Origin: Candidatus Nomurabacteria bacterium
GTDB taxonomy: Bacteria > Patescibacteriota > Minisyncoccia > Phycocordibacterales > UBA9973
Reading direction: 5' to 3'
DNA: 64,000 nt
Assembly: GCA_023267275.1 (NCBI GenBank)
Contig: JAHFNO010000005.1
Coordinates: forward strand, 9,462-73,461
Shown one piece after another: positions 3,650-42,315 of this stretch. The number at the start of each line of letters is the position of its first letter. Positions within the stretch are counted from its first letter, which is position 1. The notes below the pieces were generated by a model. The model saw only the letters and a list, made by a program, of their open reading frames with translations, did no database searches and had not been told where the DNA came from. A program made the position numbers and the translations under genes.

Positions 3650-4057
3650 ATGGCATTAACCCTTACACCAGTAAAAAAAGAAGATCGCGCAGCAATTGAT
3701 TTCGCATCAGGCGATACTGTGCGCGTCTGGGTGAAGATTCCTGAAAAAGGAAAGTTTCGCCTCCAGGCATTTGAAGGTCTCGTTCTCGCTCGCAAACACG
3801 GTGCTGAAATCGGTGCAACATTTACTGTCCGCAAGATTGCCAGTGGTGTGGGAGTAGAACGTATTTTCCCATTGTTTTCACCAATGATTGATTCTATTGA
3901 AGTCATCAAAAAATCAGGAGCACGCCGAAGCAAGCTCTATTACGTTCGCGAAAAAGCAGTTCGTGATATCCGTAAGAAAATGAAAAGTGTTCGCGTGATT
4001 GCAGATGCAACTCCAGACGAAGTAGAAGAAGTCGCAGAAGAAAAAGTAGAAGCATAA
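3650..4057 (+). CDS. rplS: 50S ribosomal protein L19
   Basis: [10 protein letters not shown]...RLQAFEGLV...[27 protein letters not shown]...RRSKLYYVR matches L19 throughout. Confidence 0.9.
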
Positions 4058-4143
4058 TACAAAACAAAATCCCTCGCTCGAGGGATTTTGTTTTGAGAAT
4101 AATTGGTAGACGCTATACCCTAGAGGTATGGTATAATCTACAC

Positions 4144-5184: not shown

Positions 5185-6051
5185 TTGTGCATACTGTATA
5201 CTTTTTTCATGAGCCTAGAATGGTCTAAAAGTCCCGCCCGAAATGAGGCCGTTGATATCCAAAAGCAAGCCAAGAAAACCAGAGAAGAAATTTATTACGA
5301 CAATGAGCAAGTCCGGAGCGAATCTTTTATTGAAAATCACGATGATAGTGATAATTTTGAATGGCAGAAGGATGGAGATATCTCAAGGGATCAAACGGAG
5401 CGTTTTGTAACAAATGCTGAAAACATAACAGAAAAATCAATTATTGAAAAAGCCCTCCAAGCCTTGATCAAACAGAAAGAGGAACGTCAACGCATTATAG
5501 AAAAATACCCAGAAGCGTATAAGGAATTTCCTCATTATCATACTATTTCTTCGGAAATCTCAAGATTAAGTAATGCGATTAACGCTTTACAAAGAGAAAG
5601 AAGCGAGGTTACAGCTATCGAGAAAGTGCTTAATGGTAAAGAATCATGGTGGGTTGATGACTCAACAGAAAAATATGTTAAAGAAAAATTTCATGAAAAT
5701 GAGCTTTGGCAAGTCGCATTAAAGAAGGCTCGTAGTAGAGACGAGTGGATCGAGCGTATTTCCTCTGGTCGTATTAGTGGAGTATTTGAGAAAATTCTAA
5801 TGAAGGTCGTAGCAAAACAAATCTTGAAACCAAGATACGATGAGTTAGTTGAAAAAATGGAAGATTACAATGAGAAAATAATTACTTTAGAAGAAGAAAA
5901 GAAAAAATATTTAGTACGAATGAAAGCCCTAGAAGACTTTCTGTATAGTTCGGAATGGGGTGAGTTCTCTAAATTGGAGGATCTTGAGAAAGAAATAAAC
6001 AAGAATATAAGAATTGTTAAAACAATTTCCCAGCGCCATACCTTTAATTAA
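5185..6051 (+). CDS. Hypothetical coiled-coil protein, upstream partner of the PARP-like gene
   Basis: Charged, heptad-rich sequence with no recognisable domain. 23-bp gap to the next gene on the same strand. Start may be the internal Met at MSLEWSK. Confidence 0.55.
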   Translation: MCILYTFFMSLEWSKSPARNEAVDIQKQAKKTREEIYYDNEQVRSESFIENHDDSDNFEWQKDGDISRDQTERFVTNAENITEKSIIEKALQALIKQKEERQRIIEKYPEAYKEFPHYHTISSEISRLSNAINALQRERSEVTAIEKVLNGKESWWVDDSTEKYVKEKFHENELWQVALKKARSRDEWIERISSGRISGVFEKILMKVVAKQILKPRYDELVEKMEDYNEKIITLEEEKKKYLVRMKALEDFLYSSEWGEFSKLEDLEKEINKNIRIVKTISQRHTFN

Positions 6052-10853: not shown

Positions 10854-11882
10854 ATGAACACACAAAAAACATATACATTTCATGTGCACGGCATGCATTG
10901 CAACTCATGTGTACTCCTTACGGAGAGTGAACTCGCCGAGCTTCCATACATCACGAGTGCAAAGAGTAGTTTACAGAATCGCACGGTTGTTGTTGAAGGA
11001 GACTTTGGTGAGCAAACTGCCGAAGAAATCGCACAAACACTCACGAATGTATTGCAGCCACACGGATATACACTTTCGATTGAAGCAGAACAAAAAGAAA
11101 AAAATCTTTCTGAATTTATGGTCGCAGTTCCGATCGCGATTGGTTTTGCCGCACTCTTTTTGTTGCTCCAAAAATCAGGTATTGTGCACCTGAGTGGATT
11201 TGGAGAGGTGACGTACGGCACGGCATTTGTCATTGGTATCATCGCTTCGCTTTCTTCGTGTATGGCAGTGGTGGGAGGACTCGTACTTTCAATGTCGGCA
11301 ACATTCGCAAAAGAAAGTAGTACTGCTCGTCCACAGATTCTTTTCCATATTGGACGAATCGTTTCGTTTTTTGTACTTGGTGGAGTCGTTGGTCTTTTGG
11401 GAAAAGCATTTGCACTCTCGGCAACAGTGACATTTATACTTGGGCTCATTGTTGGTTTGGTAATGCTTATTCTCGGAATCAATTTGCTCGATGTTTTTCA
11501 TTGGTCAAAACGTTTGCAACCAGGGATGCCAAAAATTCTTTCCAAGCATGCGTTTAACGTTTCAAAAATAAATGGAGCTGTGACACCACTCCTTGTTGGG
11601 GTCGCCACCTTTTTCCTGCCATGTGGATTTACACAATCGATGCAAATTTACACACTTTCAACGGGAAGTTTTTTGAAAGGAGGACTTACCATGCTTGCAT
11701 TCGCACTAGGTACATTTCCTGTGCTCGCCGCACTTTCATTTGGTTCATCGAATATTGCAAAAAGTGCAAAGTCGGGCATATTTTTTAAATCCGCAGGACT
11801 CGTTGTGATTCTTTTTGCAGTATTTAATATTATCAATGCACTAGCAGTGGCAGGAATTATTCCACCAGTATTTAATTTTTAA
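10854..11882 (+). CDS. HMA-domain fused to a DsbD/CcdA/TauE-like transmembrane domain
   Basis: N-terminal GMHCNSC heavy-metal-associated motif; polytopic membrane domain with paired cysteines (SSCMAV, FLPCGF). Confidence 0.65.
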   Translation: MNTQKTYTFHVHGMHCNSCVLLTESELAELPYITSAKSSLQNRTVVVEGDFGEQTAEEIAQTLTNVLQPHGYTLSIEAEQKEKNLSEFMVAVPIAIGFAALFLLLQKSGIVHLSGFGEVTYGTAFVIGIIASLSSCMAVVGGLVLSMSATFAKESSTARPQILFHIGRIVSFFVLGGVVGLLGKAFALSATVTFILGLIVGLVMLILGINLLDVFHWSKRLQPGMPKILSKHAFNVSKINGAVTPLLVGVATFFLPCGFTQSMQIYTLSTGSFLKGGLTMLAFALGTFPVLAALSFGSSNIAKSAKSGIFFKSAGLVVILFAVFNIINALAVAGIIPPVFNF

Positions 11883-11900
11883 TATACGCTACACAAATGG

Positions 11901-11990
11901 CTCATTTCTTCGTTGCCTCACTCGTTTGTTCCCGCGGAGTAGGATTACTACACCTTAGTCACAAGCCTCATTCGCGCCTCGAACTGCATC
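11901..11990 (+). repeat. Copy 1 of a ~90-nt dispersed intergenic element
   Basis: Core ...ctcgtttgttcccgcggagtaggattactacaccttagtcacaagcctcattcgcgcctcgaactgcat, embedded between the 18-bp inverted repeat atatacgctacacaaatgg / ccatttgtgtagcgtata. Copies also at 34412-34503 (inverted) and 42075-42170. Confidence 0.65.
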
Positions 11991-12016
11991 CATTTGTGTA
12001 GCGTATAATAACTTTT

Positions 12017-25064: not shown

Positions 25065-25240
25065 AAAAAAATAGTTTGTGATTGGGGAAGTGAGGTTTGA
25101 ATCCTCCACAGTGCCGCTACGGTGATACCAAGACTCTCTTGGGAAGTCCGAATGCCAATCATAAATAGTGTGTCCCGAGCAGGAAATGTAGCGCGTGTTA
25201 AGCGCTCGTCTCTACAAAGTCCCTCGGAAGGGATTTTTTT
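25065..25240 (+). ncRNA. Cobalamin riboswitch with intrinsic-terminator expression platform
   Basis: tGGGGAAGTGAGGTTTGAATCCTCC...ACGGTGATAC...GGGAAGTCCGAATGCCAATC parallels the T. tengcongensis AdoCbl aptamer (GUGGGAAAGUGACGUGAAAUUCGUCC...ACGGUUAUACUCCGAAUGCCACC). Ends in the tccct-cgga-aggga hairpin plus T7 at 25220-25240, ~80 bp upstream of the DUF4430 gene. Confidence 0.75.
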
Positions 25241-30204: not shown

Positions 30205-30960
30205 ATGGAAGAAATTATCGTAGTTACAGAAAAAGAATCACAGCCAGAGGTAAAAAAACAAACAAATATTACACTCGTTCAAGCAGTTCTCTTAAACGCG
30301 GTTATTATTGCTATCGCGATTATTGTTGGAGCATGCATTGTGCACGGTTCGTTTGATTCTTGGGGAAGTGGTTCGAAGACAAACACAGAACAAAAGGTAT
30401 TAGCTCCCGATATTACAAAAATAAATATGGCGGGTGCACCATTTATCGGCAATCCGAATGCAAAGGTGGCAATCGCATACTGGTCTGATTTTCAGTGTCC
30501 ATACTGCAAAAAATTTGAGACTATAGTATTTCCAACTATTTTGAAAAATTATGTGGCGACTGGAAAAGTTGCCGTAGTGTTCAAAGATTATTCTTTCCTC
30601 GGACCAGATTCAGAAACGGCAGCAGTATATGCTCGTGCAGTTTGGAATGTATATCCACAACAATATTTTGCATGGAGGACGGCAATGTTTGATGCACAAG
30701 ACAAAGAAAATGCCGATTTTGGCGACGAGACAAGTATCGTCAAACTCACTGAAACAATTTCCGGAATTGATACCGCAAAGGTGCAAGCCGACGTTGCTAA
30801 AAATAAAAATGCGTATATACAGTCAATTGATGCAGATAAGGCTGAGGCAGAAAAATTTGGTATTCAAGGCACTCCGTCATTTATCACTGGGACACAGCTT
30901 ATTCCTGGGTACAGTGAATTTGCTACATTTGCAAAAGCACTTGATGCACAATTGAAATAA
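30205..30960 (+). CDS. DsbA-family thiol:disulfide oxidoreductase, membrane-anchored
   Basis: TM anchor then AIAYWSDFQCPYCKKFE (CPYC thioredoxin-fold active site) and GTPSFI. Confidence 0.8.
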   Translation: MEEIIVVTEKESQPEVKKQTNITLVQAVLLNAVIIAIAIIVGACIVHGSFDSWGSGSKTNTEQKVLAPDITKINMAGAPFIGNPNAKVAIAYWSDFQCPYCKKFETIVFPTILKNYVATGKVAVVFKDYSFLGPDSETAAVYARAVWNVYPQQYFAWRTAMFDAQDKENADFGDETSIVKLTETISGIDTAKVQADVAKNKNAYIQSIDADKAEAEKFGIQGTPSFITGTQLIPGYSEFATFAKALDAQLK

Positions 30961-31038
30961 TACGTTGCAAAATAAGGATACTACACCCGGCGCACCTTCG
31001 GTGCGCCGGGTGTAGTTGTATTTTTTAGGAGTGATATA

Positions 31039-33116: not shown

Positions 33117-33437
33117 TCTCGTATACAAACAGATCGTTTATGACCAAAAAAATCGTTACAATTCTCGTTCTTTGTGTTGTTCTTGTTTGTATTGGCTTGG
33201 TGATTCACTCAATGCTAGTACCTTCATCAGAGCATGATAGTTCAAGAAATATCGGTGCAATTATCAATAATAAATAGGACTCACGTAAACAGCGCATTTC
33301 TGAATCAGTAGATTCACTCTTGGAGCTTGTTGAAAACCTCTTTTTGTACTCACCGTACTTCTAGTACGTTTCCGAGCAAAATAAGGTTTTCGCCTCGAAC
33401 TGCATCTGTTTACAAGAGTCCTACCAAATATTTACAT

Positions 33438-34281: not shown

Positions 34282-34325
34282 AATAAGAGCGGCGAGGGTA
34301 ACCCCTCGCCGCTCTTTACTTTTGC
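34282..34325 (+). terminator. Intrinsic terminator
   Basis: agagcggcgagggg-taa-cccctcgccgctct followed by ttacttttg. Confidence 0.6.
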
Positions 34326-34411
34326 ACCCATCTGCGGTATTATCTACGTATCAGAAAGGCCCCCGCGGGCTTTTTAATTTAGCCATTTAATGAAGTAGAA
34401 TTTATATAAAT

Positions 34412-34503
34412 GAATGCAGTTCGAGGCGCGAGCGAGGCTTGTGACTAAGGTGTAGTAATCCTACTCCGCGGGAGCAAACGAGCGATGCAACAAAGAAATG
34501 CGT
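34412..34503 (-). repeat. Copy 2 of the ~90-nt dispersed element (inverted orientation)
   Basis: gaatgcagttcgaggcgcgagcgaggcttgtgactaaggtgtagtaatcctactccgcgggagcaaacgagcgatgcaacaaagaaatgcgtc is the reverse complement of copies 1 and 3. Flanked by ataaatga / tcatttat. Confidence 0.65.
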
Positions 34504-34527
34504 CATTTATGGAAATTATAAAATTAT

Positions 34528-34710
34528 ATGAGTATTACATCATACGTTAAAGAGACACGCGAAGAATTCAAGCATGTAAACTGGCCAAATCGTAAACAGG
34601 CCATTGTGTATACTATTTCCGTTATCGTTATATCTGTCGCCGTAGCATATCTCCTTGGAGCATTTGATAGTCTTTTCCAGTTTGGACTCGGTAAACTTTT
34701 GGGCTTTTAA
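34528..34710 (+). CDS. secE: Preprotein translocase subunit SecE
   Basis: 60 aa: ...VKETREEFKHVNWPNRKQAIVYTISVIVISVAVAYLLGAFDSLF, the SecE pattern, directly upstream of nusG (conserved secE-nusG synteny). Confidence 0.8.
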   Translation: MSITSYVKETREEFKHVNWPNRKQAIVYTISVIVISVAVAYLLGAFDSLFQFGLGKLLGF

Positions 34711-40406: not shown

Positions 40407-40640
40407 AATTTTTAATATTAAATTGGTTAAGAATGATATTTCTGTTACAGATTACCTTTTAACAGAGCGTTTGCAAAGTAAAATGGGGATTTGACATATC
40501 ATTATAAAAGTGCTATTCTTATGGCATCATTCTCACTAAGGACTAAACGAAGTTCTATTTTAATTTTAAGGGAGTGACGATTGTGGAATTCGCCTAGACT
40601 ACTTTGTCGTTGGTTGATCCATGACACACAAGTAATCTAT

Positions 40641-42059
40641 ATGCACACAGGTCATTCTGCGCGTCCCCAGGGCGCGAAACCTGCCCGTACGGGTGGGCGC
40701 TCATTCGGTTCATCACCAGTATCACGTTCTGGCTCAGGCTTTCGTTATACCGGTCCATCACATTCTGCTCCTCGTCCTGCGAGTAGTGGTTCTTCTGCAA
40801 AGCCAGCATTTAAATCTGGTGGTTTTCGTGGACCCGCTCCAGTAGGAGGCTCACGTTTCGGTGGAGCAAAAAAGGGTAGTGGTTTCGGAGGAGGTCGTCG
40901 TAGTACAAGCTTTGCTCGCAATCGCTCTGGTGGTGGCGGTGGAGGCAATCGCTTCGCGCAACGCATCGACTTTGCCAAGTTTGTAAAAAAAGCAGAGAAA
41001 GTCGAAGAAAAGAAATATATTCCAAAGCATGCATTTGCTGATTTTCCATTTGGCGAACAGCTTCAAAAAAATATTGCAAAGAAAGGATTTATATATCCAA
41101 CACCAATTCAAGATCAATCAATCATGACTGTGCTCGAAGGTCGTGACTTCTTCGGACTTGCAAACACTGGTACTGGAAAAACAGGCGCCTTTATTCTTCC
41201 GCTCATCGATCGTGTGAGTCGTGATAAAACACAAAAGGTTCTTATCCTTGCTCCTACACGCGAACTCGCTCAGCAAATTCAAGAAGAGTTCCGTACACTC
41301 TCTGGTTGGTTGCAGATTTTCTCCGCATCAGTTGTGGGAGGAATGCCAGTACATCGCCAGATTTCTGAAATCAAACGCGGAGTACATTTTGTTATCGGAA
41401 CTCCAGGACGTGTTACAGATCTTATTAAACAGAAAGTACTTGATCTCTCAACATACAGCACTGTTGTACTCGATGAGGCAGACCGAATGCTTGATATGGG
41501 ATTCCGTGATGATATGACATTTATCTTGGGTAAATGTTCAGCCAAGCGCCAAACACTTTTCTTCTCCGCAACGCTTTCACCTGAAATCAAAAAGATGACA
41601 GAAATGTATTTGAAGAATCCACTCTTTGTTTCTGTGGTAACAGGAAACACATCAAAGAATGTTGACCAGGATGTTATTCGTGCAAACAAAGATGACAAAC
41701 TCGACAAGCTTCATGATGTGCTTATCAAGGAAGGTTCAAACAAAGTGCTCATCTTCCGCGAAACAAAGCGCAGTGTGGACCAGCTCGAAACTGAACTCAA
41801 AACTCGTGGATTTAAAGTAGGTGCGATTCATGGAGACAAGCGTAACCGTGAACGCATGCGCACACTTGATGCATTTAAAATGAATCAAATCAGTATTCTT
41901 ATTGCGACCGACGTAGCTGCTCGTGGACTCGACATTCCAAATGTTACTCACGTAATCAACTACGATATTCCAAATGATTACGATACATATGTGCACCGCA
42001 TCGGCCGAACAGGAAGAGCAGATAAGAAAGGTATAGCTTTGACATTCATTCCTGCGTAA
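40641..42059 (+). CDS. DEAD-box ATP-dependent RNA helicase with N-terminal Gly/Arg/Ser-rich low-complexity extension
   Basis: Q-motif PTPIQ, GTGKTGAF (motif I), DEAD, SAT, HRIGRTGR. About 130-aa RGG-like N-terminal region. Confidence 0.9.
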   Translation: MHTGHSARPQGAKPARTGGRSFGSSPVSRSGSGFRYTGPSHSAPRPASSGSSAKPAFKSGGFRGPAPVGGSRFGGAKKGSGFGGGRRSTSFARNRSGGGGGGNRFAQRIDFAKFVKKAEKVEEKKYIPKHAFADFPFGEQLQKNIAKKGFIYPTPIQDQSIMTVLEGRDFFGLANTGTGKTGAFILPLIDRVSRDKTQKVLILAPTRELAQQIQEEFRTLSGWLQIFSASVVGGMPVHRQISEIKRGVHFVIGTPGRVTDLIKQKVLDLSTYSTVVLDEADRMLDMGFRDDMTFILGKCSAKRQTLFFSATLSPEIKKMTEMYLKNPLFVSVVTGNTSKNVDQDVIRANKDDKLDKLHDVLIKEGSNKVLIFRETKRSVDQLETELKTRGFKVGAIHGDKRNRERMRTLDAFKMNQISILIATDVAARGLDIPNVTHVINYDIPNDYDTYVHRIGRTGRADKKGIALTFIPA

Positions 42060-42074
42060 TAAATCTTACATACG

Positions 42075-42170
42075 ACGCATTTCTTTGTTGTTTCGCTCGT
42101 TTGCTCCCGCGGAGTAGGATTACTACACCTTGGTCGCAAGCCTCGCTCGCGCCTCGAACTGCATTCGTCT
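42075..42170 (+). repeat. Copy 3 of the ~90-nt dispersed element
   Basis: gcatttctttgttgtttcgctcgtttgctcccgcggagtaggattactacaccttggtcgcaagcctcgctcgcgcctcgaactgcat. Flanked by the 15-bp direct repeat taataaatcttacat on both sides. Followed by the terminator caccccggcgccc-tttaca-gggcgccggggtg. Confidence 0.65.
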
Positions 42171-42315
42171 GTAAAATTTATTAATAAATCTTACATTTTG
42201 CAAAACACCCCGGCGCCCTTTACAGGGCGCCGGGGTGTTGCATTATATATCTTTCGGGTGTAATATCTAAACAAATTTTTTTCACAACATATATTCACTT
42301 CAAAAGCTTTGATTT

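Follow-up and report, generated by a model that had tools for sequence, protein, structure and literature searches.

The window analysed here is a 64-kb stretch (40% GC) of contig JAHFNO010000005.1 from a Candidatus Nomurabacteria bacterium, carrying transfer RNAs (tRNAs), a cobalamin riboswitch and ordinary genes, together with four copies of a non-coding hairpin repeat of about 125 nucleotides (nt) at 11882-12008, 33274-33424, 34395-34521 and 42057-42183. Each copy of this element consists of a core enclosed by a basal inverted-repeat stem (P1), with a junction module next to the stem, and its orientation is given below as the strand that folds better. Copy 1 (11882-12008, better-folding strand minus) directly follows the stop codon (TAA, 11880-11882) of an HMA/DsbD_2 gene, and its end is 9 nt ahead of the start codon (ATG, 12017) of a cupredoxin gene. 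Its P1 arms, an 18-base-pair (bp) inverted repeat, occupy 11883-11900 and 11990-12007, and its junction modules occupy 11975-11989 (AUGCAGUUCGAGGCG on the minus strand) and 11901-11915.

Copy 2 (34395-34521, better-folding strand plus) has P1 arms at 34395-34413 and 34503-34521, with the inverted repeat ataaatga/tcatttat around its core, and is placed after two terminator hairpins of the upstream gene and before the start of secE (ATG at 34528). These two consecutive terminator-like hairpins (34285-34316 and 34357-34377, plus strand) separate a SIMPL gene from copy 2 and secE, and the position of both is kept in the related locus L021, from another Nomurabacteria metagenome-assembled genome (MAG). 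Copy 3 (42057-42183, better-folding strand minus) has P1 arms at 42057-42075 and 42165-42183, and its first three P1 bases are the TAA stop of a DEAD-box helicase gene. A 15-nt direct repeat, TAATAAATCTTACAT, is found here on the plus strand, first at 42057-42071 and again at 42182-42196, so that the 5' arm is duplicated just beyond the 3' arm with a spacing of 125 nt (an X-core-X'-X arrangement). The original prediction described copy 3 as flanked by this direct repeat; the repeat is present, but copy 3 likewise has an inverted-repeat stem, taataaatcttacatacga / tcgtctgtaaaatttatta. The inverted repeats it reported at copies 1 and 2 are also present.

Copy 4 (33274-33424, better-folding strand minus) is full-length but divergent and ends 14 nt before the downstream SIMPL/DUF541 gene. 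Both conserved termini are present (CGCATTTCT ... TCGCCTCGAACTGCAT), its interior is longer, different and AT-rich, and an extra 25-nt hairpin (33323-33347) lies within the 3' RAA loop of the junction module. Its own stem, gtaaacag/ctgtttac, extends to TAGGACTC.../...GAGTCCTA and is near the family consensus. The original prediction listed three full copies and a fragment at 33387-33413; the three copies stand, and the fragment is the end of this complete fourth copy.

A covariance model (R1), built from 110 copies of which 3 come from the window, finds exactly four element sites in the window, scoring 108.5 (copy 3), 106.7 (copy 1), 105.3 (copy 2) and 55.1 bits (copy 4). Its sole further match is a bare GC-rich hairpin at 30981-31015 (plus strand), with a perfect 16-bp stem (CTACACCCGGCGCACC...GGTGCGCCGGGTGTAG), located just past an open reading frame (ORF) ending at 30960; it scores 16.4 bits through the stem only and is probably a terminator. 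The three cores of about 90 nt had been predicted at more than 85% identity, and the measured values are 93.1% for copies 1 and 2, 89.7% for copies 1 and 3, and 95.7% for copies 2 and 3. The 15-mer CGCCTCGAACTGCAT, common to the copies, occurs 4 times in the window against 0.08 expected. The P1 stems of copies 1-3, by a count made by eye, agree at only ~58% of positions and are still paired, with near-identical cores between them.

The same architecture is found throughout the family. Every true copy is bounded by an inverted repeat of about 19 bp, whose consensus in many genomes is TAGGACTTACGCAGTTGG / CCAACTGCGTAAGTCCTA, and the length including the stem is 124-130 nt in 109 of 111 copies. 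P1, which forms the terminal inverted repeats (TIRs), comprises 19 bp and is 83-91% paired; of 110 copies, 57 have TA at their 5' end, 62 at their 3' end and 51 at both. The secondary structure predicted from RNAalifold and a voted structure is a rod-like hairpin that proceeds from P1 through a bulged A, a UGCA/UGCG helix, a G/A mismatch and a UUC/GAA helix to an internal loop (5'-GA / 3'-RAA), a single G-C pair and a second internal loop (5'-GC / 3'-AA, reading GA/GA in some copies). At the top of the predicted rod follow a helix P2, a tandem GA/GA loop, a helix P3 in which GUA...UAC is conserved, and a loop of 3-9 nt. On the better-folding strand the junction module reads AUGCAGUUCGAGGC on the 5' side and CAACRAAGAAAUGCG on the 3' side; it is asymmetric and conserved, and it gives two short helices split by purine-rich internal loops. 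P2 falls into two classes, one GC-rich and conserved in sequence, to which 44 of 110 copies belong (among them copies 1-3 of the window) and which has a conserved 7x7 purine-rich loop (GAGCGAG / GAGCGAA), and one AT-rich and variable, which includes copy 4. Extra small hairpins of 15-35 nt occur at internal loops of some copies (window 33323-33347, L047:687-833, L067:6169-6310 and L111:949-1106).

Pairing in this structure is maintained well above the level of shuffled controls. Across 110 sequences, 81% of cells are paired versus 66% in shuffles, changes on both sides are seen in 43 of 52 pairs, and the covariation score is 0.442 versus 0.177 in shuffles (reached by 0 of 500) and 0.07-0.11 with slid partners. 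Copies lying outside the search pattern show compensatory changes even in helices that otherwise appear conserved (UGGA/UCCG, UACA/UGUG, UGC/GCA and GAC/GUC), and their loops vary little. These changes settle the helix register and rule out a classical kink-turn. A Kt-7 kink-turn comprises a C-stem, a 3-nt bulge and tandem sheared G.A/A.G pairs opening the NC stem, and a Kt-7-like C-GAA-GA-A / C-GA-G arrangement is present in the element; however, the UGC/GCA and GAC/GUC covariation pairs the second GAA with UUC, leaving a 2x3 GA/RAA loop. Likenesses to a tRNA T-loop (GUUCGAGGC) and to group II domain 5 (GAGCCGUA...UACGGU) were also rejected, as the required flanking pairs are absent, P3 varies and Rfam gives no match.

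Five pairs of copies with common flanks, and therefore orthologous, allow the pattern of change to be followed at single loci. Flanks are 74-93% and elements 69-98% identical within these pairs, the conserved unpaired positions differ at only 0-4 sites per pair, and the stems have accumulated 9 double compensatory changes and 12 single pair-keeping changes. The sequence of the stem is free and its pairing is not, and the core is constrained in sequence.

The two strands of the element are not equivalent. The better fold is the reverse complement of the orientation used in the original prediction in 109 of 111 copies, with mean energies of -53.6 versus -43.1 kcal/mol. On the better-folding strand 357 G.U pairs are counted against 135 A.C pairs, the latter being G.U on the other strand; in well-aligned helices only, the ratio is 137:37, and the pair 60-82 is GC in 45, GU in 44 and AU in 19 copies. 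This wobble asymmetry has the same sign whether a copy faces with or against its neighbours; it is therefore a property of the element, and strand-specific mutation bias was rejected as its source. Between co-directional neighbours the better-folding strand is mostly antisense (39:11 or 38:13 in two counts), and gaps between convergent genes are occupied as often as those between divergent genes (15 and 14). In 81 of 120 copies (p = 1.6e-4) the C-rich strand is the one that folds better, with a ratio of 62:24 at strongly skewed loci; the plus strand of the window is G-rich throughout (positive GC skew). Such an orientation bias could arise if copies placing the strongly folding strand into messenger RNA (mRNA) were selected against, or if insertion or retention were coupled to replication.

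Comparison with relatives reveals filled and empty sites. L021 is syntenic with window 33.8-43.4 kb at ~80% identity, and copies 2 and 3 are absent at its syntenic loci, where plain sequence without a matching palindrome is found. L021 is filled at 5362-5489, in the 5' leader that precedes its DEAD-box helicase gene, with a copy of its own (5366-5489, TAGGATTC...GAATCCTA). The corresponding site is empty in the window (40584-40600, plus strand, GAATTCGCC|TAGACTAC) and in a third relative, L127. Since this site is empty in the window and L127 and filled in L021, the inserted unit is the whole hairpin with its stem, and the target was not a hairpin. The mobile unit is thus the whole imperfect palindrome of about 125 nt, basal stem included. 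The L021 insertion resembles window copy 4, which occupies a different locus, and its stem is unrelated to its flanks. This is the one clean filled/empty pair, reading GCC|TAGAC when empty and GCC-CAAT-[TAGG..CCTA]-TAGAC when filled, which would fit a TA duplication only if the pre-insertion site differed.

Repeats in the flanks give no general sign of a longer duplication. Among 111 copies, only copy 3 and the AT-rich, low-complexity L031 score for a flank repeat, so the direct repeat at copy 3 is a one-off and no general target duplication. Its arrangement prompted the idea that fold-back synthesis on the target produces the stem; as a general mechanism, that idea was rejected given the rarity of such repeats, and it is further opposed by the homology of the stems to the family consensus and by the unrelated L021 stem. 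The leader that hosts the L021 insertion is itself conserved at 70-82% in three genomes (window 40505-40640, plus strand; L021:5290-5361 and 5490-5545; L127:6931-7069). Its sequence, catcattctcactaagg...gagtgacgattgtggaattcgcc..., represents a candidate element of the 5' untranslated region, and the DEAD-box helicase probably has its true start codon in the ATG near 40641 and not in the TTG at 40581.

Further copies were sought with an exact-pattern scan covering one genome per species, which gave at least 114 loci on genome contigs, nearly all of Patescibacteria and often with several contigs or copies from one genome. Five pattern loci from other phyla are chance matches, as the covariance model gives no match there, and the same holds for three pattern matches on viral contigs, so viral carriage was rejected. 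The search pattern forces invariant termini, and the model was therefore used to find copies outside it; it gives 129 matches in the pattern loci, 16 of which (first model search) lie outside the pattern. Altogether more than 120 copies beyond the window were found, mostly in Parcubacteria-type genomes and many ending in TAGG...CCTA. At least one copy is present in the complete Patescibacteria genome OY970378.1. Source MAG labels among the matches listed include Nomura-, Taylor-, Kaiser-, Zambryskii-, Morani-, Lloyd- and Vogelbacteria, Paceibacterota and 'Saccharibacteria'. One locus (L005) has three copies within 2 kb (3994-4119, 5553-5684 and 5773-5898), two of them just 88 nt apart, and the copy at 3994-4119 carries a compensatory UGGA/UCCG variant of the conserved helix.

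The distribution is patchy. Across 80 metagenome loci whose NusG is 74-85% identical to that of the window (826 kb), only 2 weak matches were found, so that the family, abundant in some lineages, is lacking in near relatives. A BLAST search of plasmids and phages gave no match to the element, and full-text literature searches found no description of it. No Rfam 15 family matched any copy above chance, whether at the gathering score, at E<=10 for copy 1 (where the sole match, to the MIR6140 hairpin at E 2.5, is by chance) or at E<=0.1 for 8 loci bearing copies.

Other hairpin elements, 90-140 nt long and with unrelated or only distantly related interiors, have the same termini, TAGGACTTACGC...GCGTAAGTCCTA (L179:10541-10668, L174:2404-2520, L010:6910-7048 and L105:2460-2552). 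The L179 element has the same overall layout with another junction module (AUGAGAGGCG...). Families sharing ends in this way are typical of MITEs (miniature transposable elements with inverted repeats) mobilised by one transposase type.

The copies occupy short intergenic gaps, often touching a stop codon, and their surroundings are ordinary. No conservation was found in sequence outside the element, promoter-like and terminator-like sites are at chance level, and the neighbouring genes show no enrichment of any protein family. Translation GTPases and ATP synthase genes are the most frequent neighbours, and in several genomes a copy comes immediately after an EF-G/EF-Tu-like gene or after atpE. 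A gene whose product, judged by a motif, looks like the YraN/UPF0102 predicted nuclease lies near the element at 7 loci (including L009:4903-5463 and L037:6914-7459) and adjoins it directly in 2; this is probably ordinary synteny, noted as a structure-specific nuclease could act on hairpins. Elsewhere in the window, an AdoCbl-II (cobalamin) riboswitch aptamer at 25075-25165 (plus strand; 37.0 bits versus an Rfam gathering score of 36.5) lies upstream of ORFs of 171 and 739 aa.

The element is non-coding, as predicted. The folded strand opens with AUG CAG UUC GAG GCG (MQFEA...), the sole reading frame, which stops after 13-14 codons in the window copies; it was rejected as a small protein on the grounds that loop indels are not multiples of 3, the start codon is lost in several copies and length is unconserved. 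On the better-folding strand this ORF can cross the whole element into the next gene (L006:445-571, L088:2392-3309 and others). Simple ORF callers extend or invent genes through it, which is why 24 of 115 copies seemed to lie inside an ORF. As this reading frame crosses many copies, the element is a source of gene-calling errors.

We consider it probable that the copies form a new family of mobile intergenic repeats in Patescibacteria, small, non-autonomous and not described before, of the bacterial MITE or intergenic repeat unit (IRU) type. In agreement with the original description of a dispersed, intergenic, MITE-like repeat, presence and absence differ among relatives, the distribution is patchy and the contexts are variable and ordinary. 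Among the properties of bacterial MITEs (PMC2229807), the element has a length below 200 bp, no coding capacity, TIRs and TA termini, and it is dispersed in multiple copies with filled and empty sites between relatives; a cognate transposase or insertion sequence (IS) with matching ends is not among them, since none was found in the 1011 ORFs, the TIR-pair searches or the Pfam batch around the copies. Under this interpretation, a transposase encoded elsewhere would recognise the shared termini together with the subterminal module and move the element in trans. Its tight placement between genes would lead to co-transcription with them, and the co-transcribed element may act as an orientation-dependent RNA hairpin on processing or stability. 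Such an effect on mRNA would account for the fact that mRNA mostly does not contain the strongly folding strand.

The closest analogue is ERIC, an IRU, followed by Correia and RUP. ERIC measures 127 bp, has an orientation-dependent effect on mRNA and shows bacterial MITE properties (PMC2229807). In part according to the same source, ERIC is like the element an imperfect palindrome of nearly the same length, intergenic, packed between genes and co-transcribed, with TA termini, a copy number varying between genomes, occasional internal insertions, an ORF through some copies and no transposase known. Enlarged ERIC variants resemble the copies with extra hairpins at internal loops. ERIC differs in having no sequence similarity to the element and in belonging to another host phylum, and unlike ERIC, the element has a variable 19-bp terminal stem and an asymmetric subterminal module that is conserved, its wobble pairs are clearly asymmetric and its orientation is biased towards antisense. 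The ERIC2 primer sequence has no window match with <=3 mismatches, and the junction module and termini, compared by eye, are presumably unlike the ERIC core. Correia/NEMIS (Neisseria) and RUP (Streptococcus pneumoniae) share with the element a length of 100-160 bp, lack of coding, TIRs, TA ends, filled and empty sites, long transcript hairpins and subfamilies with common ends (PMC2229807). In those families the TIRs are well conserved and TA is duplicated, and for RUP an IS630 transposase whose ends match is a candidate; the analysis shows none of these three features for the element.

Several observations weigh against the interpretation as a mobile repeat of this kind. The clean L021 junction shows an extra CAAT and a second TA and gives no plain target-site duplication, and no transposase or autonomous parent with the element's ends was found in ~0.9 Mb surrounding the copies; a search for split halves or for TIR pairs at a distance of 0.5-4 kb gave nothing but chance pairs that enclose housekeeping ORFs. 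Conservation is strongest in a subterminal part and not at the ends, the P1 sequence varies freely yet stays paired, and the wobble pairs favour one strand (357:135) whatever the genomic orientation. Subterminal conservation, a free but paired stem, fixed length, strand-specific wobbles and orientation bias point to selection on a folded single strand, either RNA or single-stranded DNA (ssDNA), which goes beyond the needs of a plain DDE-type MITE.

One reading of this selection, which we regard as doubtful, is that the element exceeds a decaying MITE and is a Patescibacteria-specific, protein-bound structured module of RNA or ssDNA, in which a constant 125-nt rod with invariant purine-rich internal loops would be read by a dedicated factor. 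It might take the form of a new structure-dependent mobilisation that leaves the basal stem free to vary, or of a domesticated 'punctuation' hairpin that would set processing or stability boundaries in the polycistronic mRNAs of such minimal genomes.

A structured small-RNA gene family or cis-acting RNA module, with the better-folding strand transcribed, protein bound at the purine-rich loops and mobility secondary, also seems unlikely to be the correct description. The strong covariation, the nearly invariant loops with compensatory changes at orthologous loci, the tight length constraint, the better fold of one strand in nearly every copy and the excess of G.U over A.C on that strand independent of genomic orientation are all consistent with it. 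However, the better-folding strand is predominantly antisense to co-directional neighbours, the element abuts stop and start codons and so leaves no room for a promoter, and promoter and terminator signals were not found at the copies. The 80 NusG-related loci nearly free of the element, the close relatives differing by insertion and the termini shared with unrelated interiors also count against an RNA gene.

Somewhat less likely again is an ssDNA hairpin serving as substrate of an HUH transposase (IS200/IS605 or RAYT-like) or a tyrosine recombinase, comparable to REPINs, PATEs and integron attC sites, with the orientation bias derived from replication. The strand-specific folding asymmetry, the conserved bulges and mismatches, the placement of the better-folding strand on the C-rich strand (taken as lagging-strand sequence) and the clean L021 insertion without evident target duplication would all suit such a substrate. 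Near the copies, however, neither a Y1/HUH gene nor one for an integrase was seen, and the folded strand lies on the leading-strand template, opposite to the strand bias that IS200/IS605 elements reportedly show. REPINs, with their REP-RAYT system, resemble the element as hairpin-forming intergenic repeats of ~100 nt that form within-genome populations under hairpin selection and are mobilised in trans. They consist of two inverted REP palindromes (20-40 bp each) with a GTAG/CGTC tag and a linked RAYT gene, whereas the element is a single long hairpin, which consists neither of two REP hairpins nor of one hairpin for the left end and another for the right; its arms are not palindromes in themselves, the base that precedes TAGG varies, there is no constant tag and no RAYT gene was seen near the copies. 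Integron attC sites likewise keep structure over sequence, fold strand-specifically, have conserved extrahelical bases and place the folded strand antisense to neighbours on the leading-strand template. They differ by their RYYYAAC/GTTRRRY (R''/R') boxes, cassette arrays and integrase, in contrast to the housekeeping neighbours of the element, which has no cassette array; attC boxes proposed in the element were rejected, as they appear only in the consensus stem and the varying inner ends of P1 fit them by chance in some copies.

The model of the original prediction, in which a core of ~90 nt inserts into the loops of pre-existing terminator-like palindromes, accounts for each window core lying between the arms of a different inverted repeat but is very improbable, since these repeats form a basal stem of ~19 bp that belongs to the element itself, shows homology to the consensus of the family and has a constant length, the empty sites lack palindromes, the stem enters together with the core at a non-palindromic empty site (which refutes the model for the L021 insertion), and copy 1 without its core would be a loop-less perfect palindrome lacking a T-run.

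Patescibacteria have tiny, gene-dense genomes and are thought to be poor in mobile elements. With about 1 copy every 16 kb in some lineages and none in close relatives, the hairpin repeat is a useful marker for genome dynamics and horizontal exchange within Patescibacteria, and the R1 covariance model can be used for its annotation. The element is also a candidate for regulating what becomes of operon mRNAs. Covariation, a fixed length and strand-specific wobbles make it a good system for studying what keeps repeats structured, a question shared with ERIC-type elements.

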